Source of the DNA: Chloroflexota bacterium
GTDB lineage: Bacteria > Chloroflexota > Dehalococcoidia > FW602-bin16
Assembly: GCA_004297765.1 (NCBI GenBank)
Contig: SCTZ01000085.1
Location: forward strand, 10,240 to 74,239
Reading direction: 5' to 3'
DNA: 64,000 nucleotides
Positions 37,919 to 60,121 of this stretch are shown here, one piece after another. The notes under the pieces were generated by a model. That model did no database searches and had not been told where the DNA came from. It worked only from the letters and a program-made list of their open reading frames with translations. Within the stretch, counting starts at the first letter, position 1. Each line of letters begins with the position of its first letter. The translations under genes and the position numbers were made by a program.

Positions 37919-38081
37919 CCGCCCCGAAAACGACCCCCAGTGGGGAATTGCGCAAATCGGCGTCTCGCAGGAAACGTGCTAGTGCGTTCCTGCCTTCCCC
38001 GGGAATCGCGGTCCACGGACTCTTTACTTGTCCCGGACTTGTCTCCCAGACAATTATCAAGGAAGGGAGACAAGTAGTAAG

Positions 38082-38894
38082 ATGGGCGCGAAGAGGTGGA
38101 ACGAATTGAAACCTGACAAACTCAAACTGGATAGCCTGAAGGGGCACTTCGAGGTCTTCAACCGCAGCGAGGGCAAGTCGCCCAAGACCGTGATCTGGTA
38201 CAACGAGACCTTGAAGGATTTCATCGCGTTCCTTGAGAAGGAGGGAATCCCGCCATCGCTGGCGACGGCCGATGAGATGGCGGTACGCCGCTACATTCTC
38301 GACCTGCAGAATAGGAAAGTCCACGGCAGGCCAATATCCAGCCATTCGGTAAACAGCCGCGTCCGAGCGCTGCGCGTATTCTACAACTGGCTTTACAACC
38401 AGAAATACACGAAGCGTAATTTGTTGGAGAAAGTCAGGCCGCCCAAGGCAGAGGAGAAGATCGTTGAACTCCTGACGGAGTCGGAGATAGCACGCCTTTT
38501 CGCTGCCTTCAACCCCAATACCGCGTTGGGAGCTCGCAACATTGCCATCATTGCTACGTTGCTAGACTGTGGGCTACGGCGGTCGGAAGCCATCGATCTC
38601 AAGGATGAAGACGCCAAACTCTCCGACGGCTACGTCAAAGTTATGGGCAAGGGGAGAAAGGAACGGATGGTGACCCTGGGTTCCACCAGCCAGCGAGCCT
38701 TGCCTCACTACCACCATCCCTTCCGTTCAGAGCAAGCCAACCCCATCACCATCGCCAACTTCTTCCTCAGCTGCCAGGGCTATCCCTTCACCTCATCAGG
38801 ACTGACAAGCATGATCGTCATACCATGGGAGCGTTCTGGTGTTCCGCGTCTGCACGTCTATTTTCGCTTCAGGACGCCGAGCGCAATATGTGTA
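38082..38894 (+). pseudogene. tyrosine recombinase (phage-integrase family), C-terminally truncated/degenerate
   Basis: SAM-like N-domain (TVIWYNETLKDFIAFL...RALRVFYNWL) and the first catalytic Arg context (ATLLDCGLRRSEAIDL, VMGKGRKER). After ...GLTSMI the H-x-x-R and Tyr region is unrecognisable. The frame then runs antisense into hbd, whose stop is at 38895. Confidence 0.7.
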
Positions 38895-39752
38895 CTATTC
38901 CTTGTTGTAGTCGTAAAAGCCCTTTCCGAATTTGCGTCCGAGCAGCCCAGCCTCTACCATCTGCCGCAGCAGCTGTGGCGGGCGGAACCGCTCCCCGAAC
39001 GTGCCCAGCAGACCCTCACCGGCGTGGAAGTGGATATCGAGACCGGTGTAGTCGGCGAGCTCGAAGGGTCCCATGGGATGATTCAGCCCCAGCTTGAGGG
39101 CCTTGTCGATATCTTCCCTGCTGGCCACGCCCTCCTCCAGGATACGCATGCACTCGTATTCGAAGGCGATCAGTGCGCGGGTGACAATGAAGCCCTGGGA
39201 GTCCTTGCACATGACCGTTTCTTTGCCGAGCATGTGAGAGATCTCCTCTATCTTCCGAGCGACCTCATCGGATGTCAATAGCCCGCGGACGATCTCAATT
39301 AGGCGCATCACGGGCGGCGGATTGAACCAGTGCATTCCAATAACCCGCTCGGGCCTCTTGGTGGCGCTGGCGATGGAGGTAATGCTGAGCTCGGAGGTGT
39401 TGCTGGCCAGGATTGCATCGGGACGGCAAACGCTATCCAACTCCGCAAAGATGTTCCTCTTTAGATCTAGGCGCTCGGGAACCGCCTCGATAACCAGGTC
39501 CGCCTGCTCGGCAACGGCCCGGAGGTCAGAACTGGGCTTGATGCGCGCCATCACCTGTGGCATGGCCTCCGCCTGCAGCTTCCCAGATTTCACCATGCGG
39601 GCAAGGCTGAACTGGATGGTCGATAGGGCCCGGTCCAAGATCTCCTCCGAGATATCCACCAGAACGACGTCGAAGCCGCTCAGGGCGCAAACCTGGGCGA
39701 TGCCGTTGCCCATGGTGCCGCTGCCGAGTGCCAGGATCTTTTGCACGGTCAC
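38895..39752 (-). CDS. hbd: 3-hydroxyacyl/3-hydroxybutyryl-CoA dehydrogenase
   Basis: KILALGSGTMGNGIAQVCALSGFDVVLVD Rossmann motif, plus a C-terminal 3HCDH domain (...NHPMGPFELADYTGLD). Confidence 0.9.
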   Translation of the reverse strand: MTVQKILALGSGTMGNGIAQVCALSGFDVVLVDISEEILDRALSTIQFSLARMVKSGKLQAEAMPQVMARIKPSSDLRAVAEQADLVIEAVPERLDLKRNIFAELDSVCRPDAILASNTSELSITSIASATKRPERVIGMHWFNPPPVMRLIEIVRGLLTSDEVARKIEEISHMLGKETVMCKDSQGFIVTRALIAFEYECMRILEEGVASREDIDKALKLGLNHPMGPFELADYTGLDIHFHAGEGLLGTFGERFRPPQLLRQMVEAGLLGRKFGKGFYDYNKE

Positions 39753-39891: not shown

Positions 39892-41085
39892 CTAATACTC
39901 CTCGCGCTCGAATATGGCGGCCATGCCTTGTCCACCGCCGACACACATGGTCACCATGCCGTAGCGCCCCTGGCGGCGTAGGAGTTCGTAGATCATCGTA
40001 GTCGTCAAACGAATGCCGGTGCAGCCGAGCGGATGTCCTAGCGCAATAGCGCCGCCGTTCGGGTTGACCTTGGCAGGATCCAGTCCAAGCTCTTTGATGC
40101 AGTAGACAGCCTGACTGGCAAAGGCCTCGTTCAACTCGATCACGTCCATGTCGTCCGCAGTCAGGCCGACCTTCTTGAGCACCTTGGGCACGGCGGACAC
40201 AGGACCGATGCCCATCACGCGCGGATCGACTCCAGCGACGGAATAGGCTCGATAGGTCACCAGCGGCTTGATCCCCAGGTCTTTGGCCTTCTCTTTGCTC
40301 ATCATCACCATGGCAGCCGCTCCGTCATTCATACCAGATGAGTTGCCAGCGGTAACAGACCCGCCTGTCCTAAATGCCGGCGCAAGTCTGGCGAGACCCT
40401 CCAGAGTCGTCTCGGGACGCGGATGCTCATCTGTATCCACGACGACGGCCGGGCCCATCTTTTGCGGGATCTCCACCGGGACAATCTCGTCCTTGAAGCG
40501 ACCTGCTCGTATGGCGGCGATGGCCCGCTTCTGGCTCTCCAGGGCGAATGCGTCCTGCTCCTCTCGGGAGATGTTGAACTTTTCGGCCACGTTCTCCGCG
40601 GTGTCTCCCATGACCATCTCGCCGTAGATTTCCGGAGGGGAGGAAAACGGACCACCGAACGAATCGAGCAGCAACTGCGGGCCGCGCTGATACGGGTTCG
40701 GCATCTTCTCCAGAAGGAAGGGGGCGCGGGACATGCTCTCCAGTCCAGACGCTATCACAATCTCCGCGTCCTCATTCAGGATCACCTGCGCGGCCGTCAC
40801 GATAGCCTGCAGCCCAGAGCTGCACAGCCGATTGACGGTCTGCCCAGGGACGTGCACGGGAAAGCCAGCCTTTACCAACGCCCAGCGCCCCACGTTCGAC
40901 GCCCGGCCTGCCGGCAGCGTGCATCCCATGATGACATCCTCGACCACGCCAGGATGGATACGAGCACGCCGGACCGCCTCCTTGAGAACATGTACCGCCA
41001 GATCACCCGGCGCCACATCGCGCAGAACTCCCGCGTGACGCCCTACGGCCGTTCGGCATGCCGATACGATCACCACCTCTCGCAT
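39892..41085 (-). CDS. acetyl-CoA C-acetyltransferase (thiolase II)
   Basis: Active-site contexts [26 protein letters not shown] and CVGGGQG. Confidence 0.9.
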
Positions 41086-41151: not shown

Positions 41152-42099
41152 CTAGCCGCCCTTCTTCACCTGTGCGAGAAGTTCCGGCAGAATCGCGTAC
41201 AGGTCGCCCACGATGCCGTAGTCGCTTACCTTGAAAATCGGAGCGTCCGCCGCCTTGTTAATCGCAACGATCGTCTTTGCGCGCGTGATGCCGACCGTAT
41301 GCTGGATCTGACCGGAGACGCCGACCGCCAGGTAGAGCTTGGGCGCGGCCTTCACCCCGGTGAGTCCTACTATCCGATCCTCCGAGAGCCAGTGCAGGTC
41401 CATCCCAAGCGGTCGCGTGCAGGCGATCTCCGCTCCTATCGCGTCCGCGAGATCGCTGACCATTCGCAGGTCGTCTTGGTTGATCAATCCCTTCCCTACC
41501 GCGATGATCCGCTCAGCCTCCTCCAACCGCACGCCCTCTCTCGCCTTAGGCTTGCGCTCAAGCAGCCTCTTCTTTTTGCCTCCGGCGGCTAGCTCAACAT
41601 CGACCGTCTGTCCGGTCCGAGAAGCATCGCGCTCCGGACGACCAAAAGCGTAAGGCATGACCGCGTACACTTTTCTAGCAGTCAGAACCTCCTCAGTGGC
41701 CACCGAGTTGCCACCGAGGGTGTAGCGATCCGCCAGTAGCACGTCTCCCTCACGGCGCAAGTCGATCACATCCGTGACACAGCCGGCGCCCAGCCGCGTG
41801 GCAAGCCGCGCGGCGATCTCCTTGCCACGTTTGGTCGAAGAGATGAGGTAGATATCCACGCCGACCGTGTCCGCCAGCCGCGCGAGCGTCCCCGCGAGAT
41901 CGCTTTCGTCGGCCACGCCCTCCGCGGAGACGCGATACACTATGTCTGCGCCATTGAAGAAGCACTCGTCGACCGCGCCAGGCACACCATCCGACAGCAG
42001 CAGCGCAGCAACCCGGTCGCCCTGGCATAGCTCCGCGGCCTTGCCCAGCAGCTCATACAGCCCGCCGCTCTCTTCCGAAAAAGCAAGAATCTTCGTCAT
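41152..42099 (-). CDS. etfA: electron transfer flavoprotein alpha subunit (EtfA/FixB)
   Basis: C-terminal FAD-binding region ...LYLAVGVSGQIQHTVGITRAKTIVAINKAADAPIF...DYGIVGDL. Confidence 0.9.
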   Translation of the reverse strand: MTKILAFSEESGGLYELLGKAAELCQGDRVAALLLSDGVPGAVDECFFNGADIVYRVSAEGVADESDLAGTLARLADTVGVDIYLISSTKRGKEIAARLATRLGAGCVTDVIDLRREGDVLLADRYTLGGNSVATEEVLTARKVYAVMPYAFGRPERDASRTGQTVDVELAAGGKKKRLLERKPKAREGVRLEEAERIIAVGKGLINQDDLRMVSDLADAIGAEIACTRPLGMDLHWLSEDRIVGLTGVKAAPKLYLAVGVSGQIQHTVGITRAKTIVAINKAADAPIFKVSDYGIVGDLYAILPELLAQVKKGG

Positions 42100-42107
42100 T
42101 GTCTATC

Positions 42108-42893
42108 TCACCTCGTGATGGCTCCGTCCTTAAGGAGTGAATCGAGCAGGCATTTCACCACGTCTTCCGTCGCGCCTTCGTAGGTGATCCCTTTGCGACT
42201 GATCCGGGGTGCCACGTTCCGCGTGCGCTGGACCAGCTTGTCGACGGCGATGCGCTGGGCATCCAGTCCGAGGTCGTTGACCGTCCATTCCTGGACCGGC
42301 TTCTTCCCCGCCTTCAGGATGTCCGTCAGGGAGGGCAAGTGCGGCTCGTTGATCTCGGTGGTGACGCTCACCACGGCTGGGAGTTGGACCTCGACAGACT
42401 CGTAGCGATCTTCCAGATCACGCACGCAGCGCGCGATCCCTCCTTCGATCGAGATCTCCCGCACTCCCGTCACGCCAGGAACGCCCAGCAACTCGGAGAG
42501 AGTCGGCGCGATCAGCCCGGCATAGTTATCGATGGATCCCTCGCCCAGCAAGAGCACGTCGAACGCGCCGATCCGTTCTACGGCCTTGGCAAGTACCGTC
42601 GCCACGGCCGCCTCGTCCGCATCCGCGAGCCGCTCGTCTACTACCAGCCGGGCTTCGTCGGCTCCCATGGACAGGACCTCTTTGACGGTCTTCTTGAGGG
42701 TCTGTCCACCCGCGCTCACCACGACGACGCGACCGCCATGCTGGGTGCGCAGATGGATGGCGGTCTCGACCGCGTTCTTGCTCAGGTCCTCGATCTCCAG
42801 CGGCAGGCCGACCAGCTTCGGCTCGCCGGTGTTGTCGTCGATCCGCACCTGGTCCAGGTCGACCGCCTGTTTTACGCAGACCACAAATTCCAT
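42108..42893 (-). CDS. etfB: electron transfer flavoprotein beta subunit (EtfB/FixA)
   Basis: MEFVVCVKQAVDL...NAVETAIHL...VVVVSAG...DVLLLGEGSID: a typical ETF beta subunit. Confidence 0.9.
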   Translation of the reverse strand: MEFVVCVKQAVDLDQVRIDDNTGEPKLVGLPLEIEDLSKNAVETAIHLRTQHGGRVVVVSAGGQTLKKTVKEVLSMGADEARLVVDERLADADEAAVATVLAKAVERIGAFDVLLLGEGSIDNYAGLIAPTLSELLGVPGVTGVREISIEGGIARCVRDLEDRYESVEVQLPAVVSVTTEINEPHLPSLTDILKAGKKPVQEWTVNDLGLDAQRIAVDKLVQRTRNVAPRISRKGITYEGATEDVVKCLLDSLLKDGAITR

Positions 42894-42911
42894 ATGGCAG
42901 AGAACCTCCTC

Positions 42912-43199
42912 TTACCCCAACCGATACTGCACGCCGCAGCCGCCTTCCGGATACTCCCAGGTCAGATGGCTGCACACCACCAGACAGGTTCCGCATTCCA
43001 GGCAGCCCTCGTAGTTGAGCACGATCTGACCGTCCGCGCCCAATGAGTACAGGTTGCCCGGACAGATGCGCAGACACCAGCGCTCTCGACAAACCGCGCA
43101 CCGCGCCTGGTCGGGCAGAATGTGCGCAGCCTTAGCTATCTTGTAGGTGTTCAACCCCAGCTTCGCCTCGATGGACAGCTTTTCCTGCTCGTAGGTCAT
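42912..43199 (-). CDS. fixX: FixX-type ferredoxin-like protein
   Basis: Only the last 95 aa of the 307-aa ORF look coding: MTYEQEKLSIEAKLGLNTY...CAVCRERWCLRICP...CLECGTCLVVC. Its ATG overlaps the fixC stop (ATGA). Confidence 0.85.
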   Translation of the reverse strand: MTYEQEKLSIEAKLGLNTYKIAKAAHILPDQARCAVCRERWCLRICPGNLYSLGADGQIVLNYEGCLECGTCLVVCSHLTWEYPEGGCGVQYRLG

Positions 43200-44482
43200 A
43201 GCATTCGATAGCCTCCTAGCGCATCGCCCAGCAGCTTGAGAACCGAGACGCGGCTCGTGATCTCCCTGCGCGCAGCGCGAGAAAACCGCTCCTTGGGACT
43301 CCCATTGAAGAACATGGTCTGCTCCAGAGCGGCGCAAGCCAGATCCGGATAATCCCTGTAGAGACGCTGATTGTCTAGCAGATGCTGGGCCTTGCCAAAG
43401 GTTCCGAAGTCCCGGCCCACGAAGCTCCCGCGCAGTAGCCTGTCGAAGCGCGACAGCTTCGCGCGGGAGAGATCGCCGGCTTCTCGGGCCTCTTTGATAG
43501 CTCGAGCCGCAAGCGCTCCGCTGGCTATCGCATAGTCCATGCCGCGCACCGTTAGCCCCATGTTCAAGCAGAGGCCGGCGGCATCGCCGACGACCAGGAC
43601 GCCGTCCCCTACCAGGGTTTGAGGTATGACCGCGGCCTCCGGGATGAGGTGGGCAGCGTACTCGACCGTCCGTCCGCCTTTGACCAGGCGCTTGATCGTG
43701 GGATGCGATTTGAGACGCTCGGTCAACTCGGAGACCTGGAAATCTGCCCCCATGGCCGCCGCTATTTCCACCACCAGTCCAAGAGAGAGGCTCTCGCGGT
43801 TCGTGTACAGGAAGCCACCCCCCTTCGCACCGCACGACGGGAAGCCGACCATGAGCATGGCCGCGCCTTCGTTGCCCTCCAGGTTGAATCGATCCTCGAT
43901 GGTGCCGCGCGGAAGCTCGATGATCTCCTTAGCGGCGACCGCGCAGTGCTTCGGATGCGGTCGTCCCAGCAGACCAAGCTTCCGTGCAAGAAGAGAATTG
44001 ACGCCATCGGCGAGGACCACCACATCGGCATCGACCGTATCCCCGGCCGAGCGAACCCCGCAGACCCGCCCATCCACCGTCGCCAACTCGTCGACTTTCA
44101 TCTTCGTGACGATCAGTCCACCGGACTCTTCCACCTTCGACGCCAGCCACTGATCGAAGGTGCCACGGAGAACGCTATGGCTATGATAGGGGGCGGTCCC
44201 AAAGCGCGAGCTGAACAACTCCACACTAACGGACGCCTCGCCGTTCATGAAACAGAGAAGCTCGCGATTGACGTGCCGCTCGAAAGGAGCGTCGTCCCAC
44301 AGCCCTGGCAGCAACTGATCCAGCGATAGGGTGTAGATTCGCCCTCCGCTGACGTTCTTTGCACCAGGGTAGTCGCCACGCTCCACCACCAGCACCGGGA
44401 TCTCCTCCCGCGCCAGCGCGTAAGCGCAGGCGAGGCCGGCAAGGCCAGCCCCGACCACGATAACGTCGAACTTCTCCCCCAT
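43196..44482 (-). CDS. fixC: ETF-quinone oxidoreductase FixC (FAD-dependent)
   Basis: FDVIVVGAGLAGLACAYALA dinucleotide fold. The 428-aa length and the fixC-fixX coupling are typical. Confidence 0.88.
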   Translation of the reverse strand: MGEKFDVIVVGAGLAGLACAYALAREEIPVLVVERGDYPGAKNVSGGRIYTLSLDQLLPGLWDDAPFERHVNRELLCFMNGEASVSVELFSSRFGTAPYHSHSVLRGTFDQWLASKVEESGGLIVTKMKVDELATVDGRVCGVRSAGDTVDADVVVLADGVNSLLARKLGLLGRPHPKHCAVAAKEIIELPRGTIEDRFNLEGNEGAAMLMVGFPSCGAKGGGFLYTNRESLSLGLVVEIAAAMGADFQVSELTERLKSHPTIKRLVKGGRTVEYAAHLIPEAAVIPQTLVGDGVLVVGDAAGLCLNMGLTVRGMDYAIASGALAARAIKEAREAGDLSRAKLSRFDRLLRGSFVGRDFGTFGKAQHLLDNQRLYRDYPDLACAALEQTMFFNGSPKERFSRAARREITSRVSVLKLLGDALGGYRML

Positions 44483-44596
44483 CCTATTACCTCAGAAGAA
44501 CCGGCACAATCCCACGGTCAGTTGATCAGTATCCGACCGATCCGTCGGATCCGGCGGATCGATCGGATCTGCAGCAGTGCACGTTACCAGACATGC

Positions 44597-45805
44597 CTAC
44601 TTGTACGGGATAAATTCCTTCCCCAGCAGCTCACGCCCCAGGATGACCCGCATGATGTTCAGCGCCCCCTCGGCGCCCACCATGTAGGACATGACACCCC
44701 GCAAGCCCATCTCCAGCTCGTTCTCCTTCGTGTAGCCCGCCGCGCCGTACCACATCATGGCCCGCTTGACCGTCTCGAAGGCGATCTGCGGGGCAAAGAG
44801 CTTCGCAATGCTGACGATCTTCGTGATCTCCGACTGCATGTACGAATCGGGATGCGGGTTCTGATCGATGAGCGACGCGGCCTTCAACACGGCCAGCTTG
44901 ATCATCTCCGTCATGCCATACTGATCGGCGATCTCGAACTGGACGCCCTCGAACTTGCCGATCGGTCGCCCAAAGGCCTCGCGTTGCTTGACGTACTCGA
45001 TGCCGACCTCCAACGCTCGCTCGGCGGCGCCCACACACGCTGCCGCGACTTGGGTGCGGGCCGCGTTGAAGCCGGACATGGCGTAGTAGAAGCCCTTGTC
45101 TTCCTCTCCGAGGAGGTACTTGGCCGGAACCTTGGCATCCTTGTAGAAGATCCCGCCGGTCGAGATGCCCATCCGTCCCATGTCCTTGTACTGCGTGACC
45201 GTGATGCCTTCCGTACGAATCGGGACGTAGATGAAGCTCATGCCGTTGTAGCCCCGCGAGGGGTCGGTGCGCACGAGCGTGAGATGTCCTCCACCCTCGG
45301 GTAGGCGCTGGGCGCTCTCGATGACGCCACTGCAGAAGGCCTTCTCTCCGTTAAGAACGTAGTAGTCACCCTCACGCCGAGCCGTCGTCTTGGTGTTGGC
45401 CAGGTCGGACCCACCGCCCGGCTCGGTCGTTGCAATGCCAATGAAGGCGTCGCCAGCGACCACGGGGGGGAAGACTTCCCGCTTGGCCTGCTCCGTGCCG
45501 AATAAATTGAGGATATATGACCAGCCGGCCTCCAGGAGGTAGAATACGGCGGTAGCCATGCTGATGTCGCCCCGACCGATCTCGACGGCCGCCAGCGCGG
45601 TCATCATGGCCGTCGCGCCCGCTCCGCCGTAGCTCTCCGGAATGCCGATGCCTAGAAGCTTGAGCTCAGCCATCTGTTTGAGCAAATCCAGCGGGATCTG
45701 CTCGGTTTCGTCGATCTCGCGCGACCGTGGGCGCAGTCGTTTCTCGCAGAACTCGCGTACCACTTTCTGGAACAGTTCCTCGTCCTCTGTTAGACGAAAG
45801 TCCAC
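44597..45805 (-). CDS. acyl-CoA dehydrogenase
   Basis: 402 aa with ACAD N, middle and C domains (…GIATTEPGGGSDL…, …YTKENELEMGLRG…). Confidence 0.9.
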   Translation of the reverse strand: MDFRLTEDEELFQKVVREFCEKRLRPRSREIDETEQIPLDLLKQMAELKLLGIGIPESYGGAGATAMMTALAAVEIGRGDISMATAVFYLLEAGWSYILNLFGTEQAKREVFPPVVAGDAFIGIATTEPGGGSDLANTKTTARREGDYYVLNGEKAFCSGVIESAQRLPEGGGHLTLVRTDPSRGYNGMSFIYVPIRTEGITVTQYKDMGRMGISTGGIFYKDAKVPAKYLLGEEDKGFYYAMSGFNAARTQVAAACVGAAERALEVGIEYVKQREAFGRPIGKFEGVQFEIADQYGMTEMIKLAVLKAASLIDQNPHPDSYMQSEITKIVSIAKLFAPQIAFETVKRAMMWYGAAGYTKENELEMGLRGVMSYMVGAEGALNIMRVILGRELLGKEFIPYK

Positions 45806-45863
45806 GATGCAAGCCTCCTTGTGATGATCTGGCTGCGATATGCAATGCTGCCGCCGATCGGAC

Positions 45864-46637
45864 TCAGCGGTCGGTCCACGATGGCGGTCGCTTTTCGAGA
45901 AACGCGGATAGTCCTTCGCTCGCGTCGTGAGTACTCATCAGGTCCTTCAGATAAAGCGCTTCGACTTCGTCCAGTGCTGTACTGAAGCTGCCCCGTACAC
46001 CCGCCCGTGCAGCTCGCATGGTCAATCGCAGCGCGCTGCCACTCAACGCCTGGAGACTCCCAATCATGTTTTCGGTTGCCGCCGGCAGTTGATCCAGAGG
46101 CACCACTTTGTTGACCAGTCCCAACCGGCAGGCCTCAGTCGCGTCGACCGGCTCACCGGTAAGCAGGAGCTCCAACGCCCTCTTCGACGAGACAAGTCGC
46201 GGGAGGATCACGGCCGCGATGGGCGGGAATACCCCGGCCTTTATCTCTGGCTGGCCGAACCGTGCGTTGTCTGCAGCAATAACCATGTCGCAGAACAGCG
46301 CAAGCTCGCATCCTCCCCCTAAAGCTGCCCCCTGAACGGCCGCCAGCGTGGGAATGGATAACTGATCGAGATGGCGGAATATGCCGTGAAACAACGAAAT
46401 CATCTCGTCGACTTTATCCCTTGTGTGCTCCTCGATACTGACGCCAGCGGAGAAGTTACGTCCTTCCGCTCCGATGACAAGCAGCTTGACCGCCTCGTCG
46501 TTCACAAGCTCCAAAGCGTGGTTGATCTCGCGCATCATGGCGATATCGAGGATGTTGAGAGGAGCGCGCTTGAGGGTAAGACGAGCGATTCTACTCTCTA
46601 CTGCGAACGCTATGTGTTCAAAGTCCATGTAACTCAT
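45864..46637 (-). CDS. enoyl-CoA hydratase (crotonase); candidate cyclohexa-1,5-diene-1-carbonyl-CoA hydratase (Dch/BamR)
   Basis: Crotonase fold (LTLKRAPLNILD..., GRNFSAGVSIEEH, AVQGAALGGGCELALFCD). The Dch assignment rests only on adjacency to bamA. Confidence 0.8.
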   Translation of the reverse strand: MSYMDFEHIAFAVESRIARLTLKRAPLNILDIAMMREINHALELVNDEAVKLLVIGAEGRNFSAGVSIEEHTRDKVDEMISLFHGIFRHLDQLSIPTLAAVQGAALGGGCELALFCDMVIAADNARFGQPEIKAGVFPPIAAVILPRLVSSKRALELLLTGEPVDATEACRLGLVNKVVPLDQLPAATENMIGSLQALSGSALRLTMRAARAGVRGSFSTALDEVEALYLKDLMSTHDASEGLSAFLEKRPPSWTDR

Positions 46638-46685
46638 TCCTCATGCTCGGAATGGAACCCGGCTTCACGCCGGAAAGACACGCGC

Positions 46686-47822
46686 TCAGCTCTTCGACTC
46701 CGGCCGTGGCATTACGGCTTCCATGAACTCCTCGTCTATTGGGTGCCCCTCCGCCAGGAGTTGACGATACCGCACGAAGTCGATCACCTCGGATCCCGTT
46801 AGCTTGCGAGTGCTGAAAGCACCGAATCCCATGAAGGCTTCCGTTGACATGTTGGCCGCCAGCCAATGGCGGTTGACTGTCTTCATCTGGTCCCAGAAGT
46901 ATTTCTTCTTCGCCCTGATCCCTTCCACCGACTTGATCAGACAACCCGGGAAGAGGTTGGTGAGCTTCCAGACGAGCTGGTCAATGGCTGCATCTAGCAA
47001 GCTGAAATCTATCTGGGCCGAGCGGAGGAAGGCCTGGGCTGCCTTGGCAGCCTCACCGGTCACACCCTCGCCATAGACGATCTCCCCGTCATCTACGTAG
47101 CGATCGGTGATTATGGCGGGGTTGGGAACGAACTGGCCATCCTTCTTGAGAACGCGGACGACGCGACTGATCAGACCCAGCCGTTTCATCTTATACGCGC
47201 TCCAGAGGTCGCAGGAAACGCAGCTCCACATGGCGTCTTCGATGGAGAGATACCACGGCAGAAAGTCCGTGGAACCGCCATCGGGCGCGGAGCCGTGGCG
47301 AGGCCCGGCTTGACCGAAAACCGCCGTGTCGCCAGCTATCGACACATCGCAAGCCATCCCTGTCTCCTGCCCACCGGCTACCCGCATTCCATTGACCCGG
47401 CAGATTGTTGGCTTCTTGCAATTCAGAATAGCGTCGATCATGCCATTGAACAGGTCCATGTACAGACCGTACTCGTTAGGCCGCGCGGAATAGTATTCGG
47501 CGTATTCCTTGGTATTGCCGCCGGAGCAGAAAGCTCGATCGCCAGCGCCTGTGAACACCACGGCCACCACGCTCCGGTCCATAGATGCCCGATGGAAACC
47601 AGCGGTAACCCCCTTGACCATTGCCGTGGTGTAGGCATTGTACTGCGCTGGGTTGTTTAGGGTTACCCAGGCGGTGTTGAGACCGGGAACGGCTCGCCCC
47701 TCGGCATCGCGCACCGGCCGTAACTCGTACGTGACCGATGGCGGCTCAGTGCCAAACCATTCGTCCCGCCACAGATCATGATCCTTGATGCCATCCTCTC
47801 TTGGAAGCCAGGTCAGCGTCAC
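46686..47822 (-). CDS. bamA: 6-oxocyclohex-1-ene-1-carbonyl-CoA hydrolase (ring-cleaving, BamA/Oah-like)
   Basis: 378-aa extended crotonase. FTGAGDRAFCSGGNTKEY, NEYGLYMDLFNGMIDAILNCKKPTICRVNGMRVAGGQE and FGQAGPRHGSAPDGGSTDFLPW match my recollection of BamA/Oah sequences and their ~380-aa length. Confidence 0.72.
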   Translation of the reverse strand: MTLTWLPREDGIKDHDLWRDEWFGTEPPSVTYELRPVRDAEGRAVPGLNTAWVTLNNPAQYNAYTTAMVKGVTAGFHRASMDRSVVAVVFTGAGDRAFCSGGNTKEYAEYYSARPNEYGLYMDLFNGMIDAILNCKKPTICRVNGMRVAGGQETGMACDVSIAGDTAVFGQAGPRHGSAPDGGSTDFLPWYLSIEDAMWSCVSCDLWSAYKMKRLGLISRVVRVLKKDGQFVPNPAIITDRYVDDGEIVYGEGVTGEAAKAAQAFLRSAQIDFSLLDAAIDQLVWKLTNLFPGCLIKSVEGIRAKKKYFWDQMKTVNRHWLAANMSTEAFMGFGAFSTRKLTGSEVIDFVRYRQLLAEGHPIDEEFMEAVMPRPESKS

Positions 47823-47832
47823 ATGTTCCTCC

Positions 47833-48735
47833 TTAGGCAGTCACAGCCTCACCCAAAAGTTTATCTATCGCCGGTGCCTCGATCAGCAGGTCATCCACAA
47901 AAGCCTCTGCTTTCCTTGTCAGCAGACTGTGATAGCTCTGGAAAAGCTCTTGCGCTCTGTCGCCCAGCCAATCATCGGGAAGCAGATCCGCTGGGAGATT
48001 AGGATCGATGTAGGGGAGTTGACGGTACTCGTGAATCAACTCGAAACGACGAGTGAAATGCTCGCGGGAACTGTCGAGGTCAGGCTCAGCAAGCATGGAC
48101 TGGTACTGTGGCTCATAGCGGCTAATGAACTCCGCGTATTTCTTGGTGAGCGCCTTCGTGTTCCAGCACCGTTCGACGATCTCGCGATCCGAGGTGCGAC
48201 CATGGCGTACGCCATAGAACGTCTCCACATATCGTCGGACTTGGAGTTCGTCTAATACGACCTCGACATCCTGACGACAATCATGAGGCGATATCCACGT
48301 CGATTGATTCAGACGGCCAAACCCCAACCAAGCTAGCCGTTCTCGCAAACGGTTGCGCAGTTCTCGTTGCTTTTCATCGATTTGATAGATCACGACCAGC
48401 CACTTGCCATCCCAGGGATCCTTCCGGGGATGAAAGATGCGCTGGACACCCTCTCTCAACAAGACGGCACCCTTAGGCGTGAGCGAGTAGTAGCTGTTCC
48501 GCCCATGCTGACGAGTCCGAAACCATCCGCGACTGGACATCCTCGACAGCGTCGACCGAACGGCTTGATCCGACGCGCCGAAACAACTCATTATCTCTAT
48601 CAGGCTCCCCACCCACGCCTCACCGCCACGGTGCTGCAGGTAGTCGCCATACAGAGTGAAAAGGAGATTCTGCGTTCTGTTAGGCATTATTCTCTTTCCT
48701 GGACTTTTTGTATCAGGACCCTCAGGGTAGGACAA
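47833..48735 (-). CDS. paaX: PaaX-family transcriptional repressor
   Basis: LLFTLYGDYLQHRGGEAWVGSLIEIMSCFGASDQAVRSTLSRMSSRGW: a PaaX N-terminal wHTH plus a PaaX C-terminal domain. Confidence 0.85.
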   Translation of the reverse strand: MSYPEGPDTKSPGKRIMPNRTQNLLFTLYGDYLQHRGGEAWVGSLIEIMSCFGASDQAVRSTLSRMSSRGWFRTRQHGRNSYYSLTPKGAVLLREGVQRIFHPRKDPWDGKWLVVIYQIDEKQRELRNRLRERLAWLGFGRLNQSTWISPHDCRQDVEVVLDELQVRRYVETFYGVRHGRTSDREIVERCWNTKALTKKYAEFISRYEPQYQSMLAEPDLDSSREHFTRRFELIHEYRQLPYIDPNLPADLLPDDWLGDRAQELFQSYHSLLTRKAEAFVDDLLIEAPAIDKLLGEAVTA

Positions 48736-48844
48736 CGCCCTAACGCCAAGCCACCCGGCCGAGCGCGACGCATTGCAGTGAGCGGCTTCGGCGTTGGGGC
48801 AGCGCGTGATGATATTATCACGCGATATTTCCTATGTCAATCCC

Positions 48845-49678
48845 CTATCCCGCAGCCTTTCTAACTATGGTTCTCTTCCCCTCAGAAAGAGGAGGCGGAA
48901 CAGCCTCGCCAGATAGCTTCCTCACCGCATCGAATTGAGCCGGGCACACCTCTTGACACGTTCCGCATCTGATGCATTTTTCCTGTTCAATGACGTGGAC
49001 ACAGTTCTTGGCGCTGATGATCGCCTCCACCGGGCATCTCCTCGCGCAGATCATACAGGCCTGGCACTTCCCCGGCTCGATATAGTACGATGCCACGCCA
49101 CGGAACAAGGCCTCTATTTCTTCCCGCGTGAAAAACGTGTCATATTCTTCTTCATTAGTAAGACGTGTCCTCAGCTTCTCCTTCTTCACCTGCTTGATGT
49201 AGGGCACTAACTCCCTAACTATTGTAAGCTTGGCTCTTAGTTCTTCTTTGTCTATCCCCTCACCTGTGGCAAGGGGTCCTAACTCCTTTACCTTCTTGAC
49301 AAACGCATTCGTCACTTCGGCAAAGCGGATCCCTTCGCCGGCAGACATGAACTCGATGCTTAACCTTTCCGGGTTAAGCCCTACGTGCTCCATGATTCTT
49401 CTGCTGAGAAGCGCCGTGTTCAGGGCATGATAGTTGCCCTGAGTGACGTAGTTGCACTCATTCAAGCGGCAACCGCCGATGAACACCCCATCCATTCCAT
49501 TGGAGAGGGCCCGGAGCACAAACTCCAGATCGACTCGACCGGAACACATGACGCGGATCAGCCTGATTTCTGTTGTCAGTTGCAGTCTGGAAACTCCAGC
49601 CAGGTCAGCAGCCCCGTATGCTCACCAGTGACACACAAAGCCTAGGATTCGCGGTTTGAATTCACGTGCTGCGCTCAT
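48845..49678 (-). CDS. bamF: MvhD-like/2x[4Fe-4S] ferredoxin fusion (BamF-like) with in-frame TGA (putative Sec) at 49624-49622
   Basis: The ORF track starts at 49549 (MCSGRVD...). Reading upstream in the same frame gives MSAAREFKPRILGFVCHW-TGA-AYGAADLAGVSRLQLTTEIRLIRVMCSGRVD. The TGA sits where the MvhD consensus CNWCSY(A/G)GAD has Cys. C-terminal CQACMICARRCP...CIRCGTCQEVCP. Confidence 0.75.
49585..49600 (-). promoter_or_regulatory. candidate bacterial SECIS hairpin for the bamF TGA
   Basis: Minus strand GCUGGA-GUU-UCCAGAC, starting about 21 nt after the UGA. The stem is short, so this is only suggestive. Confidence 0.35.
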
Positions 49679-49713: not shown

Positions 49714-52700
49714 CTACACAACTCCAACCAGTGCATCAACGTGTTTCGTGATCTCTTCCTCTGGAGCTGCCGCGTCGATTTGGGCTATCAACGCTTCATC
49801 GGTAAAGTGCTTCAGTTGAATAGCCCCCGCAGGGCACTTGGCGTTACAAAGCCCACAGCCTTTGCAGAGAACAGGATTAACGACCGACTTCTTGCCATTG
49901 CGTGTCTCACGCAGCTGTATGGCACCATACGTACAGGCGAGGACGCATTCCCCACAGCCGAAACACTTCTTCTCGTTCACCTCGCACACAGAGCCGGAGG
50001 CGACGACCGTATCATGGGAGAGAAGCGTTACCACCCGGCCTGCAGCTCCATAAGCCTGATTGATCACTTCCGGTATATGCTTGGGATAGTGCGCCATGCC
50101 ACACAGATAAACACCGTCCGCGCCAAAGTCGACCGGTCTCAATTTGACGTGGGCTTCCTTAAAGAAGTCATCCGGTCCCAAAGAGGCCCCGAATGATTGA
50201 GCTAGCTCTTTGTTTCCCGCCGGGGGAATGACCGCGGCAGCCAGAGCCACTATGTCGGCGTCTATCTCGAGCTTCTTCCCCAGGATGGGATCCGTCACGG
50301 TTACCCTTAGAACGGACCTGCCGCCCTCCTGAACAGCTTCCACTTGAGGCTTATCCTGTGGCTCCCAGCGGATGAACCTAACATCTTTGCTCGCCGCTTC
50401 CCGGTAACTATCCTCTTTGAACCCATAGGTTCTGATATCCCGAAAGAGAACGTAGACGTCCATCTTTGGATTCTTGTCTTTCAGCGACAAGGCATTTTTG
50501 ATGGACTCGCTGCAACAGACCCGGCTGCAGTAGTTTCTGTCTTCATTCCTACAGCCTACGCATTGGATCATTACCAGACTCTCGGCGCTTAGCACCCTTT
50601 CATCGCCTTGGTTGATCCTCTCGTCTAGTTCCAGGTGCGTCAATACCCTGTCATCTTCTCCATACAGGTATTCGGAGGGTTTGTATAAATCAGCACCCGT
50701 GGCGATGACGGTTGCGCCATGCTGTATCTCTGTGAGCCCTCGATAGGACTTTACCTTGGTCACGAAATTTCCCACATAGCCGGTGGCTTCCGTGATCGCG
50801 GCGTCCGTATATACATGTACCGAGGGGTGCTGGTAGACCTTGCGTATGAGGTCGCGCAGGTATGCCTGGACATCCAGCCTTTCGAGAGTGGTGTGGATCC
50901 TGCGTGCCATCCCTCCCAGATCCGCTTCCTTCTCCACCAGGTGGACCTCGTGTCCCTGGTTGGCTATGGAGAGGGCACAGGTCAGACCGGCTATGCCTCC
51001 GCCTACCACCAGGGCCGCCTTGTTTACAGGCAGATCGAATTCCTGCAGCGCCTCCAAACGGGCAGTTCGTGCCACCGACATCCGGATCAGATCCTTGGCC
51101 TTCTGGGTGGCTTCTTCCTTCTCCTTGGTGTGAACCCAGGAGCAATGTTCTCTAATATTGGCCATCTCGCAGTAGTACTGATTGATTCCCGCCTCCCGAA
51201 GGGTGTCCCGGAACAGCGCTTCAAGGGTCCTGGGGGAGCAGGCGGCGATGACCACTCGATTGAGCCCTTTTTCTTTTGCCAGGTCCGATATATCTTTGGC
51301 GGAATTAGTGGCACACGAGAATAGCTGCTCTGTCGCATAGACCACGTTGGGCAAGGTCAAGGCATATTCAACCGCGGAAGGAACATCGACCGTCCTTCCG
51401 ATATTCGCTCCACAACGACACACAAAGACACCAACCCTGGGCTCCTCTGTCGAGACATTCCTTTCTAGCGGATAGACCCTTTCCGTGGACAGCTTCCCTC
51501 GCCTGTAGTCGAGGAGCTCGCCAACCTGAGATCCAGCTCCGCTGGCGGTGAAAACCGACTCGGGAATGTCCATGGGCCCCTGGAAGGCTCCGCTTGCAAA
51601 GATCCCAGGTCTGGTGGTGGCCAAAGGATTGGAAGGACTTGCTTGGCAGAATCCGTGTGAGTTCAGCTCTACGCCGAACTTCCGGGCCAGGTCCTTAGAA
51701 GCCTCCGGTGGATTCAATCCTACGGACAGGACCACCATGTCGAACTCTTCTTCTTTGACGCCATCGTCGGGCGTGGCATACCGTATGGTGACATTCTTGG
51801 TTTTAGGGTCCTCTCTAACTATCGACACGTAGCTTCTGATGAAGCGAACCCCGGGAAGTTGCTCTGCCCGTTGGTAGTAGCGCTCGAAATCCTTGCCGTA
51901 GGACCGGATATCGTTGTGGAATATCGTACAGTCGGCCTCGGTGTTATGCTCTTTGGTCAAGATCACCTGCTTTTGAGCATAGGTGCAGCATACGGCTGAG
52001 CAATAGCTGTTATTACCCGGGGTTACCGCCCGTGAGCCGACGCACTGAATCCAGGCTATATTGTGGGGATGCTTCTTGTCCGAAGCACGCAGCACCTCTC
52101 CCTCGTATGGACCGGTGGTGCATAGCAGACGTTCATAGTCCATGCTGGTTACCACGTTCTGTATCCACCCGTAGCCGTATTCGTCAGCCACCGCAGGATC
52201 GAACGGCTCAACGCCAGGCGACAGAATTATCGCCCCTACCTTTACCTCCAGCTTCTCCCTCGTTTGAGTGAAATCGATGGCCTTGTTCTCGCATACGCGC
52301 TCGCAGATGCCACATTTCTTCTCTTTGAGGTAGAGACAGCTTTCATCTATATATGTGACAAGCGGGACTGCCTGGGCGAAGTAGATATGGATAGCCTTGT
52401 TCTGCGATATCTCCTGATTGAACTTGTCAGGGTACTTGACAGGGCAGTATTGCACGCAGGTAGTACAACCCGTGCATACGCTCTCAACAACATATCTGGG
52501 CTTCTTGACCAACGTTACGCTGAAGTTTCTAGCCTCACCTTCTACACTCGCAACGTCGGTATAGGTCAGGACCTCGATGTTAGCGTGCCGGTCGACCTCG
52601 ACCAGTTTGGGTGAGAGTATTCACATCGAGCAGTCGTTGGTGGGAAAGGTCTTGTCCAGTTGGGCCATGTGGCCACCAATGGCCGGGCCTTTCTCGACAA

Positions 52701-52839
52701 GGTAGACCTTGAAACCCGCGTTGGCGAGATCGAGCGAGGCTTGAATGCCGCTGATCCCTCCACCAACGACCATGACGTCTCCAAAACTACTGTTTCCGAG
52801 GCTCTTTCGCAGCTGTTCTACGATTCGTTCGTTTTCCAC
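49714..52839 (-). CDS. bamE: HdrA-like FAD/FeS oxidoreductase, ~1041 aa (BamE-like) with in-frame TGA (putative Sec) at 52623-52621
   Basis: The 72-aa ORF 52621..52839 (…[51 protein letters not shown]) ends at a TGA. The same frame continues [20 protein letters not shown]... into the 932-aa ORF. The HdrA consensus here is TNDCSMC(U)IL.PK. There is a second dinucleotide fold ([17 protein letters not shown]) and several CxxCxxCxxxCP clusters. GTG start at 52839. Confidence 0.8.
52588..52605 (-). promoter_or_regulatory. candidate bacterial SECIS hairpin for the bamE TGA
   Basis: Minus strand CUGGUCG-AGGU-CGACCGG: a 7-bp stem with a GGU-containing apical loop, starting 15 nt after the UGA. Confidence 0.45.
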
Positions 52840-52891
52840 TTTCTATCGCCCCATCAGGCTTTGCGTCCGCACACTGTCCCGGTTAGCCATA

Positions 52892-54043
52892 CTAAACTAC
52901 TTCCTGGAGAATCTCCGTGATGTCCTTAACCTGTATGGCCTCGGCATAATCCAGGACCGCGCTGGTATCCTCGAAATTGGTGATGCAATAGGGGCAGGCA
53001 GTAACCAGCTCCTCAGCCCCAAGCCCAATGGCCTCATCCATTCTGATGTTGGAGAACCTTTCGGACTTGGGCGTTTCCATCCAAATCCTGCCTCCTCCCA
53101 TTCCGCAACACAGGCTATTCTCCCGCTTCTCAGCCATCTCAACTAACTGTAAGCCGGGTATCCTCTTTAGGGTCTCTCGGGGTGCGTCGTATACGCCATT
53201 ATGTCGACCCAGATAACACGGGTCGTGATATGTCACCTTCTTGCCGTACTCCTGGCTGATCTGAAGCCTTCCCTCGCTGATGAGCTCGAACACATACTGG
53301 GAAGTATGGACCACCTCGAAATTCACCTTGAACTCGGGGTACTCGTTCTTGAAGGTGTGGTAGCAATGAGGAGAAGACACCAGGATCTTCTGCACGCCGT
53401 TATCGATAAAGGCTTTGATGTTTTCCCTGGCCAGGCGTTTGAATAGCTCCTCATTACCTGCCTTTCGGATGCTTTCTCCACAGCAGTTCTCGCTGGAGCC
53501 GAGTACTCCGAAATCTACCCCCGCCTTATTGAGGACCCTGGCCGTAGCCTGGGCTACCTTCTTTAGTCTAGGGTCGTAGCTGCTATAGCAGCAGGGGAAA
53601 TACAACACTTCCATTCCTTCGGCGAATGGTCTTACAGACAGACCCTGGGCCCAATCCGCCCTGTTCTGGCGGTTTTCGTTGAAGGGATTACCCTGGGAGG
53701 TCAGACCTGCGCTGATACTGCGGATAAGCTTGGCACCGGCAGGGAAAACGCCATACCCCGTCGCCATTCTGCGCACGGCTACCATGTCGTCTATCTGCTT
53801 TACCTGCCTGGGACATAGTTGATGGCACTTTCCACAGGTGGTGCAGCGCCAGATCTCTTCGCTTTCTATCTCGGTCAGACCGAAAGTGGCCTCGCGAATC
53901 AGCTTGCGCATACTGAACTGTCTGACCCTGTTCCAGGGACAGACAGTATCGCACTTGCCGCATTGATAGCAGAGCTTGACGGCGTCGCCGCCTTTCTCTT
54001 TTATCTCATCGATGACTTCTTTGAAAGGGGCTACTGTCTCCAT
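52892..54043 (-). CDS. bamD: HdrD-like FeS protein with CCG domains (BamD-like)
   Basis: N-terminal 2x[4Fe-4S] (CYQCGKCDTVCP, CTTCGKCHQLCP) and two Cys-rich CCG-type domains (YFPCCYSS...CCGES; HDPCYLGR...CCGMGGG). Confidence 0.8.
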   Translation of the reverse strand: METVAPFKEVIDEIKEKGGDAVKLCYQCGKCDTVCPWNRVRQFSMRKLIREATFGLTEIESEEIWRCTTCGKCHQLCPRQVKQIDDMVAVRRMATGYGVFPAGAKLIRSISAGLTSQGNPFNENRQNRADWAQGLSVRPFAEGMEVLYFPCCYSSYDPRLKKVAQATARVLNKAGVDFGVLGSSENCCGESIRKAGNEELFKRLARENIKAFIDNGVQKILVSSPHCYHTFKNEYPEFKVNFEVVHTSQYVFELISEGRLQISQEYGKKVTYHDPCYLGRHNGVYDAPRETLKRIPGLQLVEMAEKRENSLCCGMGGGRIWMETPKSERFSNIRMDEAIGLGAEELVTACPYCITNFEDTSAVLDYAEAIQVKDITEILQEVV

Positions 54044-54052
54044 CCACCTATC

Positions 54053-54592
54053 CTAGCCCTTCTGTGACATCCGGGCGAGGCTATCAATCACATTCTGCAA
54101 CCCAAATTTGTCAACCAATGAGTTCAGCCCGGTGTCCATGTCGCTCAGCCTCTCTTCTTCTTCGGCCTCTTCCTCAGCTTCTTCGTAAGTCAGAGCGTCA
54201 GTAATGCACCACTGAACGCACAAGGGTTCTTCCTGTGGCGGATCGTCTTCACACATATCGCATTTTACAGGAAGACCGGAATCGGGCTCGTGGAAAAGCG
54301 TCCTGGATGGGCAGGAAGCTCTACAGAAGTCACAGTCGCTGTATTCCTTTCCGTCAATGACATATCTGTTCTTGCCCATACATTCGGAGGCAGTATACTG
54401 ACCCGCGTAAACAGGAAGATATACGTCTCTTATTGGCTCACGAACCACCCGAATTCGGGACCTCTCTGGATTATTACTGCTATATCTTGGCGTCGCGTGA
54501 AAGGCGGAGCAGATCACCTCACATGCCCGGCAACCATTGCACAGATCGGGATCAATCTTGACCTTCTTGACCTTCTTCTTAGTTTTGCTCAT
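54053..54592 (-). CDS. bamC: 4Fe-4S ferredoxin-type subunit (BamC-like)
   Basis: 179 aa with CNGCRACEVICS, CDFCRASCP, CDMCEDD...CVQWC and an acidic tail. Its start overlaps the 3' end of bamB by 14 nt. Confidence 0.8.
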   Translation of the reverse strand: MSKTKKKVKKVKIDPDLCNGCRACEVICSAFHATPRYSSNNPERSRIRVVREPIRDVYLPVYAGQYTASECMGKNRYVIDGKEYSDCDFCRASCPSRTLFHEPDSGLPVKCDMCEDDPPQEEPLCVQWCITDALTYEEAEEEAEEEERLSDMDTGLNSLVDKFGLQNVIDSLARMSQKG

Positions 54593-59092: not shown

Positions 59093-60121
59093 ATGAAAGC
59101 GGCGGTCTTCTATGGTCCAAACCAACCGCTCGAAGTGCGAGAGGTTCCCACACCTCAGCCCGGCCTCGGTCATGTACTCGTTCGTGTGGCCGCTTGCGGT
59201 GTCTGCCACACCGATTTGCACTACATCGACCATGGCGTGCCAACGTTCAAGAAGCCCCCACTTATCTTGGGGCACGAAGCCTCCGGCACAATAGCCGAGC
59301 TGGGGCCGGGCGTCGCCCGATTTAAAGAAGGCGATCGGGTGTTGCTGCCTGCCGTGTATGGTTGCGGGACATGTGCGTCCTGTCGCGGCGGCCGCGAGAA
59401 CATCTGTGAACAGATGGTGATGTTCGGCAACAACGTCGACGGCGCCTACGCGGAGTACATCGTCGCGCCGGCAAAGGATTGCCTGAGGCTGCCGGAAGAG
59501 GTTCCGCTGATCGAGGGCTGCATCATCGCCGACGCAACGACGACGCCCTATCACGCGGTGGTCAACCGAGGGCGTGTGACGCCAGGCGATGCCGTCGTCG
59601 TTTTTGGATGCGGTGGAGTTGGACTGAATATTGTGCAGATCGCCTCGGCGCTGGGGGCCTCGGTCGTGGCGGTCGATTTGGACGACGCCAAACTAGGCTT
59701 AGCTCGGCAGCTAGGGGCGCTGGGGGTGGTGAATCCCCGATCTATCGAGCGAGTGGATCGAGAGGTGCGAAAGCTTACCGGCGGTGGCGCCGACATTGCC
59801 TTTGAGGTCATCGGCAACCCAGCGACGATGGAGCAGGCCTTTTCCTGCGTCAAGACCGGTGGTCGCATGGTGATCGTGGGCTACGCCGACAAGCCGATGG
59901 CGCTGGACGTCCGGAGGGTCATGTATCGAGAGATGGAGGTCGTCGGATCGCTCGGCTGCCGCGCTCTGGACTATCCACGGGTCATCGAGCTGGCGCGCCA
60001 GGGCAAGATCAAGGTCAAAGAGCTGGTAACCGGGCAGTTCGGACTCGACGACATCAATGCCGCGCTGGATGTGCTGCGTCGCGGCGAGGGCGTCCGCTCA
60101 GTGATCGTTCCGAACGCCTAG
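59093..60121 (+). CDS. Zn-dependent alcohol dehydrogenase family; candidate 6-hydroxycyclohex-1-ene-1-carbonyl-CoA dehydrogenase (Had/BamQ)
   Basis: MDR/Zn-ADH motifs ([39 protein letters not shown]). The Had call is based on context only; Had enzymes belong to this family. Confidence 0.82.

Follow-up and report, generated by a model that had tools for sequence, protein, structure and literature searches.

The 64-kb stretch of Chloroflexota DNA analysed here (contig SCTZ01000085.1, positions 10,240 to 74,239, of assembly GCA_004297765.1; hereafter the window) is reasonably likely to encode a class II benzoyl-CoA reductase of the ATP-independent, tungsten- and selenium-containing kind that consists of BamBCDEF without BamGHI, and, as a separate and host-native cassette, an acyl-CoA dehydrogenase (ACAD), FixC, FixX and the two subunits of an electron-transferring flavoprotein (ETF), EtfB and EtfA. 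BamGHI is absent from the entire genome and not only from the bamF flank. Its loss accompanies a BamF that is remodelled with the ferredoxin-entry domain of BamH, and this short form is widespread among bam clusters with or without ETF genes nearby. Because the loss of BamGHI goes with the remodelled BamF, the Etf/Fix module is not regarded as a replacement for BamGHI. The ACAD-FixCX-EtfBA cassette is most likely a general link from the ACAD to the quinone pool. A literature search found no description of a BamGHI-less short form with a fusion of BamF to the BamH ferredoxin domain.

An earlier reading of this DNA, made from the sequence only, had noted that bamF is not followed by bamGHI and that an ETF module stands in the same gene string. 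Both observations were borne out. On the minus strand paaX comes directly after bamF without a contig break, and the order bamBCDEF-paaX-bamA-crotonase-ACAD-fixC-fixX-etfB-etfA is as claimed, with the genes of a thiolase and of a 3-hydroxyacyl-CoA dehydrogenase (hbd) extending the string. The string from bamB to hbd is uninterrupted on this strand, with intergenic gaps of -14 to 139 nt. No NuoE-, NuoF- or NuoG-like gene is present anywhere in the 64-kb window. The gene names used here are backed by Pfam and NCBIfam profile matches, and related loci were obtained by searching public genomes with BamB, which yielded the 80 loci most similar to the window BamB, nearly all of them in metagenome-assembled genomes (MAGs).

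The gene bamB (54579-56546, minus strand, as are all genes described below for the window) encodes the tungsten-dependent catalytic subunit of the AOR type characteristic of class II benzoyl-CoA reductase. It matches the AOR model of NCBIfam and shares 79-85% identity with the BamB proteins of the 80 public loci and 81% with that of a Geobacter sp. The start of bamC (54053-54592) overlaps bamB by 14 nt; the product is an Fe-S subunit with matches to Fe-S families and 63-81% identity to BamC of related loci. The HdrD-like product of bamD (52892-54043) shows HdrC/HdrB-type matches, shares 62-81% identity with the BamD proteins of related loci and is 72% identical to the BamD of a Geobacter sp. 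The bamE gene (49714-52845) encodes a selenoprotein of the double HdrA-like kind, the carrier of the bifurcating FAD, which matches the HdrA2 model with 795 bits. Its single in-frame TGA, read as selenocysteine (Sec; NDCSM-U-ILSPK), stands at a conserved position and gives a product of about 1040 amino acids. The last gene of the module, bamF (48845-49678), is of the ferredoxin type: in its product an MvhD/FlpD domain, which contains Sec, is followed by a middle domain and, at the C-terminus, by a domain for two [4Fe-4S] clusters. Here too one in-frame TGA encodes Sec, at the conserved position CHW-U.

The sequence-only reading had kept open that bamGHI lie elsewhere in the genome. This fallback did not hold, as neither orthologue-level BamG or BamH nor any BamI was found in the genome, an assembly of 5.6 Mb in 256 contigs with 99.9% completeness and 9% contamination. 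The whole genome contains four genes with a NuoF domain, one on contig C234, one on C81 and two on C209, and none of them adjoins hdr or aor genes. The gene on C234 is part of a complete complex I operon, the one on C81 lies on a 4-kb contig, and the two on C209 belong to a cluster with formate-dehydrogenase genes at its end. In the whole genome BamH is matched best by C209:47154-50186 (51% identity), a NuoF-GltD fusion of 1010 amino acids without the C-terminal ferredoxin domain of BamH. Together with a NuoE-like protein, which is 35-37% identical to BamG, it is encoded by C209:46691-50186. True orthologues from distant lineages share 71-80% (BamG), 64-73% (BamH) and 66-76% (BamI) identity with the proteins of the Geobacter sp. 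locus.

A second copy of bamBCDEF is present on contig C53 (C53:6416-14187), and it is also not accompanied by bamGHI. The two copies share 61-62% identity in BamB and BamC (61% in BamB), 88% in BamD and BamE and 84% in BamF. The C53 copy appears to combine a conserved electron module with a different catalytic module, perhaps for another aryl-CoA.

The structure of BamF explains what is meant by remodelling. In Geobacter, BamGH is a confurcating input of the HydBC type for reduced ferredoxin and NADH, and the external ferredoxin is taken by the C-terminal domain of BamH with its clusters H1 and H2. The winged helix of BamF docks BamI, from which the electrons pass to BamE/BamF (Appel et al. 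2026, bioRxiv 10.64898/2026.04.10.717634). The Geobacter-type BamF has 255 amino acids and ends in this C-terminal winged helix (Pfam HTH_5 at amino acids 204-245). The window BamF has about 277 amino acids with FlpD at amino acids 11-134 and two Fer4 domains at 199-248 (Pfam), the latter with two CxxCxxCxxxC motifs. In the alignment the two forms are colinear for about 195 amino acids and then diverge. The BamI-docking winged helix is absent from the window BamF and from that of C53. The ferredoxin domain of the window BamF is 51.5% identical to amino acids 541-639 of BamH, and that of the C53 copy 55%; in most loci with ferredoxin-type BamF, the Fer4 domain and tail show 57-72% identity to BamH amino acids 557-641.

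The type of BamF is correlated with what follows its gene. Across the related loci three layouts are found after bamF: bamGHI; the gene of the HdrD-like membrane protein ETF:menaquinone oxidoreductase (EMO) together with etfBA; or neither. All twelve loci with a winged-helix BamF and readable downstream DNA have bamGHI next. None of the 27 loci with a ferredoxin-type BamF has, and the same is true of both copies in the source genome; EMO-EtfBA follows bamF in nine of the 27. In a tree of BamB and BamE, where the bam locus nearest to the window belongs to a Chloroflexota MAG, the two BamF types are interspersed. Nine changes between them are needed, at least six of which are forced by well-supported branches. 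The independent phylogenetic contrasts were concordant in six of six cases (sign test, p = 0.031).

A trace of the conversion is visible at the DNA level in two sister loci, L027 and L028, which share about 90% DNA identity (junction compared over L027:17452-18590 and L028:17578-20833). In their 3′ ends, bamF of L027 and bamH of L028 align with 86% DNA identity. At the junction BamF is joined at about amino acid 196 to BamH at about amino acid 558, and the winged helix, bamG and the core of BamH are gone. A single simple deletion was considered as the origin of all short forms and was rejected. In L027 bamI has been lost as well, a DUF3795 gene (163 amino acids) standing in its place, and the pair L056/L081 shows no trace of a junction at the DNA level; one deletion step is thus not enough to account for all short forms.

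The ETF genes of the window form a cassette that starts with the ACAD gene (44597-45805), whose product contains the three Pfam domains of this family. The cassette continues with fixC (43196-44482), encoding the flavoprotein of an ETF:quinone oxidoreductase that matches the FixC of Thermotoga maritima (7KOE_C) with 247 bits, and with fixX (42912-43199), encoding a ferredoxin-like subunit with Fer4 and ETF-QO 4Fe-4S matches and a score of 52 bits to the FixX model. It ends in etfB (42108-42893; FixA/YdiQ-like small subunit, Pfam ETF domain) and etfA (41152-42099; FixB/YdiR-like large subunit, Pfam ETF and ETF_alpha domains). The same order ACAD-FixC-FixX-EtfB-EtfA is found in the locus L048, which belongs to a Chloroflexota MAG, and in the genomes G025 and G037; in all three, ACAD orthologues of 51-53% identity adjoin fixCX. 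The cassettes of G025 and G037, which are from the same phylum, share 45-53% identity with that of the window, and neither genome contains BamB or a BamA above the cut-off. In L048 the Fix cassette is oriented divergently from paaX-bamA-...-bamBCDEF, while EMO-EtfBA lies directly behind bamF. The presence of both in one locus argues against the Fix cassette being a mere substitute for EMO.

The base composition also separates the two sets of genes. The GC content of bamBCDEF and paaX is 0.50-0.54, and that of the second bam copy is alike; the genes from the ACAD gene to hbd have 0.60-0.635, and the genome 0.607. The low values of the bam genes against the host-like values of the cassette suggest that the bam genes were acquired, and they look like an acquired island beside native beta-oxidation genes. 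Adjacency alone should not be read as a wiring of the cassette to the reductase. The PDB matches of the window ACAD are generic short-chain ACADs. Two candidate assignments of its substrate were rejected. As a glutaryl-CoA dehydrogenase of the Desulfococcus type it obtains 199 bits where 470 are required, and 27 further ACADs of the genome do better without passing this threshold either; as an orthologue of cyclohexanecarboxyl-CoA dehydrogenase it reaches 221 bits, far below the cut-off.

The sequence-only reading had proposed that the module belongs to the bifurcating FixABCX systems and supplies or accepts electrons for the reductase. EtfB was compared with four solved bifurcating EtfB proteins (CarD and those of Clostridioides difficile and T. 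maritima, and LctB), with the EtfB of Paracoccus and with FixA and YdiQ of E. coli. CarD and the EtfB proteins of C. difficile and T. maritima all contain the segments MGPPQA, GADTxAT and G(R/K)QAxDGDT(A/G)QVG, and LctB contains the close variants MGPMQS and GADVVATS. Of these three segments, which are conserved across the four solved proteins, the window EtfB has none; it shows AGGQTL, ADADEAAVA and GEGSIDNYAGLIA at these positions. The last of these, the EtfB loop, fits those of E. coli FixA (GDGSSDLYAQQVG) and YdiQ (GEGSGDLYAQQVG), with G(E/D)GSxDxY in common. The ETFs that are encoded with EMO behind bamF in other loci have another EtfB loop, GRQAADWGAGQVG. The best NCBIfam models for the module are YdiR, YdiQ, FixB, FixA, FixC and YdiS, all with scores below the cut-offs (YdiR 194 of 528, YdiQ 159 of 338, FixC 405 of 610 and YdiS 392 of 466 bits); EtfA scores 169 bits with FixB and the said 194 bits with YdiR. 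Since the three segments are missing, a supply of low-potential electrons in the manner of FixABCX is not supported. By these signatures the window ETF is probably a non-canonical, non-bifurcating protein of the E. coli FixAB/YdiQR type; ETFs of this type accompany the ACAD-family enzymes CaiA and YdiO. The overall scores point the other way, as EtfA and EtfB reach 87-146 bits with bifurcating ETFs and 50-110 bits with group-1 ETFs, and a second FAD may for this reason still be bound. Of the earlier proposal, the part on electron supply thus finds no support, while electron acceptance may be considered by analogy with BamOP. The alternative offered with it, that the module serves the ACAD, is the one that we regard as most likely.

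With the gene content, the domain swap, its correlation with gene order, the deletion junction and the cassette distribution as observed, we infer the direction of electron flow and the partners as follows. The known Geobacter enzyme is modelled as two bifurcation modules in series, the confurcation by BamGH being followed by the bifurcation at BamE, the bifurcating subunit. BamD is the exit for the high-potential electron, which goes to an ETF (BamOP) and from there to the membrane-bound EMO (Appel et al. 2026, bioRxiv 10.64898/2026.04.10.717634). In the short form the ferredoxin entry site would be kept and moved onto BamF, to the place where BamI would dock, and reduced ferredoxin would be the sole input to BamF and BamE. 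The flavin of BamE would bifurcate as in Geobacter, sending the low-potential electron through BamC and BamB to the ring and the high-potential electron through BamD to an ETF. By a rough estimate such a ferredoxin-only scheme is thermodynamically feasible, with donors at about -500 mV against acceptors at about -620 mV and about 0 mV. The non-canonical ETF of the window would link its own ACAD through FixCX to the quinone pool, and it may in addition take the electron of BamD as BamOP does, with FixCX acting as EMO.

A role of this ETF for the reductase is not far-fetched, as in Geobacter it is an ETF that accepts the high-potential electron of BamD (bioRxiv 10.64898/2026.04.10.717634), and by this analogy we give a modest chance to the window ETF accepting the BamD electron. 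It is unlikely, however, that Etf/FixCX is a dedicated high-potential exit, with the ETF on BamD, FixCX replacing EMO and the service to the ACAD being secondary. Such a role would agree with the location of the ETF genes bamOP inside the D. multivorans bam clusters, with the ETF genes that follow bamF in the nine short-form loci, there with EMO, and with the close similarity of the window BamD to that of Geobacter; moreover, no EMO-EtfBA adjoins either bam copy, and the ETF closest to them is the Fix-type pair. Elsewhere in the genome, nevertheless, there are five EMO-like genes and no fewer than seven further ETF pairs, and L048 keeps EMO-EtfBA behind bamF in addition to a separate Fix cassette. 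The bam-linked ETFs have a different EtfB loop from that of the window, the GC content of the cassette is unlike that of the bam island, and the cassette occurs without bam genes. Another idea is that Etf/FixCX is a bifurcating complex of the FixABCX type, which would oxidise NADH, reduce quinone and feed the BamGHI-less reductase with reduced ferredoxin. The similarity of FixC to that of the T. maritima EtfABCX complex and the overall proximity of EtfA and EtfB to bifurcating ETFs speak for it, as does the ample reduced ferredoxin that a ferredoxin-only reductase with an entry domain on BamF needs. The missing EtfB segments make it improbable, and as far as the summary of Garcia Costas 2017 given in PMC6085437 goes, the ability to bifurcate is attributed to group 2 ETFs alone. 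The cassette, furthermore, always has its own ACAD, also in genomes without BamB or BamA, and its nearest named relatives, CaiA-FixABCX and YdiO-YdiQRST, serve enzymes of the ACAD family. We attach similarly little credence to a rewiring of both ends of the reductase, by which ferredoxin would be the only input through the BamF::BamH domain and would be regenerated from NADH by ETF-FixCX in a non-canonical bifurcation with quinone as the high-potential acceptor; if true, a relay of two complexes would stand in place of the single BamGHI confurcation module.

That the function of BamGHI is provided in trans by the NuoE/NuoF-like genes on C209 or C81 is highly improbable. The idea takes some strength from the similarity of the C209 proteins to BamG and BamH and from strain NaphS2, in which homologues of BamB-F and of BamG-I reportedly lie in separate clusters and unlinked BamG-I homologues have been proposed (PMC2988823), so that such a function is conceivable. 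The identities are, however, well under the orthologue range of 64-80%, and the C209 protein is a NuoF-GltD fusion without the ferredoxin domain, encoded in a formate-dehydrogenase cluster. A BamI homologue is missing from the genome, and neither BamF copy has the winged helix to which BamI docks.

We therefore prefer the reading of a ferredoxin-fed BamBCDEF reductase beside an independent ACAD-FixCX-EtfBA cassette. Several points weigh against it, among them the NaphS2 precedent and the overall similarity of EtfA and EtfB to bifurcating ETFs. The ACAD, to which the cassette is assigned, has no match above the cut-off of any named model (AcrC 250, cyclohexanecarboxyl-CoA dehydrogenase 221 and glutaryl-CoA dehydrogenase 199 bits). 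The correlation between BamF type and bamGHI comes from the 80 loci nearest to the window BamB, which are mostly from MAGs and constitute a biased sample. By our own estimate the short form, fed with ferredoxin alone, would consume more reducing power per ring than the Geobacter enzyme does, and it would need a source of additional reduced ferredoxin. The genes from bamB to hbd, closely spaced and all on one strand, might also be transcribed as a single long unit and be more tightly linked in function than assumed here.

BamGHI is missing from 27 of the 39 sampled public clusters, which keep only the ferredoxin-entry domain of BamH in fusion with BamF. These short-form clusters span Chloroflexota, Syntrophus, Desulfobacterales and other lineages. 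An active short form would mean that an HdrA-type module alone suffices for ring reduction beyond the potential of ferredoxin and that the NADH-saving module is an exchangeable accessory. Gene surveys based on bamB-I would then under-describe most of the environmental enzymes.

The remaining genes of the string encode a regulator and enzymes of the lower pathway. The gene downstream of bamF (47833-48735) encodes a PaaX-like repressor with the Pfam domains PaaX, PaaX_M and PaaX_C; it scores 244 bits with TIGR02277, slightly below the cut-off of 265. It is followed by bamA/oah (46686-47822; TIGR03200, 557 bits, above the cut-off of 464) and by the gene of a crotonase similar to dienoyl-CoA hydratase (45864-46637; TIGR03189, 199 bits, below the cut-off of 292). 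Behind the cassette lie the genes of the thiolase (39892-41085) and of the 3-hydroxyacyl-CoA dehydrogenase Hbd (38895-39752), both assigned by Pfam to lower beta-oxidation. Between bamF and paaX a promoter-like site is found on the minus strand (48803-48840; TTGACA-17-TAATAT, ten of twelve positions, with TG), which is to be read as a match to the consensus alone. It is overlapped by a near-perfect palindrome of 22 bp with one central mismatch, CGCGTGATAATATCATCACGCG, a candidate operator of PaaX. A second copy of the palindrome was not found in the window, and there is thus no sign that it also controls bamB. With the promoter-like site and the palindrome together, paaX-bamA-...-hbd, including the ETF cassette, would form a separate, PaaX-controlled lower-pathway unit.

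Mobile elements flank this region. An intact transposase gene (523 amino acids; 56866-58437) lies 319 nt upstream of bamB, and together with a decayed integrase-like open reading frame at the hbd end (38028-39281) it brackets the aromatic-degradation block. The gene at 59093-60121, likely to encode the Had/BamQ step, is separated from bamB by the insertion sequence. Some related loci carry an extra gene of about 270 amino acids between bamD and bamE (L008:13696-14499, L025:13687-14499), which in ORM2a is annotated as FdhD (PMC13101534); in the window this gene is absent and bamD and bamE are 46 nt apart. On C53 the second bamBCDEF is preceded by two thiolase-like genes and genes for a crotonase, a protein of 462 amino acids and a short-chain dehydrogenase/reductase (C53:803-14187), and the bam region is an island of low GC content (0.516 against 0.604). 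The formate-dehydrogenase-type cluster on C209 (C209:46691-57593) holds two NuoE/NuoF sets and probably encodes an NAD(P)- or ferredoxin-linked formate dehydrogenase. Genes for the conversion of CoA esters are very numerous in the genome, with 54 matches to the crotonase family, more than 27 ACADs, at least eight ETF pairs and the five EMO-like genes. Such a load is unusual, genomes of the same class having 1.4-2 Mb.

Among known systems, the cassette can be compared with the FixABCX and EtfABCX complexes of Azotobacter vinelandii and T. maritima (7KOE), with which it shares homologous FixC and FixX and the make-up of four subunits. Unlike in these, the window EtfB lacks MGPPQA, GADTxAT and DGDT(A/G)QVG, and the cassette includes an ACAD. 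The CaiA-FixABCX and YdiO-YdiQRST systems of E. coli, which are poorly characterised themselves, have the component set of the window, namely an ACAD, EtfB, EtfA, FixC and FixX. The loop G(E/D)GSxDxY of FixA and YdiQ is shared by the window EtfB, the overall identity of the EtfB proteins being merely 31-34%. The gene order is different, all model scores are below the cut-offs, and the ACAD, whose best model is AcrC, is not similar to CaiA or YdiO.

The nearest known reductase is Bam[(BC)2DEFGHI]2 of Geobacter metallireducens, which is also represented in Desulfosarcina cetonica. BamB-F of the window are orthologous to the proteins of the Geobacter sp. locus, with 56-81% identity, both Sec codons are present and the exit through BamD is conserved. 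As in the Geobacter bamM-P region, lower-pathway genes for BamA, a hydratase, a thiolase, an ACAD and an ETF are located in the bam neighbourhood. In contrast to Geobacter, the genome contains no BamG, BamH or BamI. An EMO gene (HdrD-like, about 690 amino acids) beside etfBA is absent from the window, the EMO-like genes of the genome lying at other sites; the ETF encoded in the neighbourhood belongs to another type and has FixCX, not EMO, as its partner. The window BamF, finally, ends in a BamH-type domain for two [4Fe-4S] clusters where the Geobacter protein ends in the winged helix that docks BamI.

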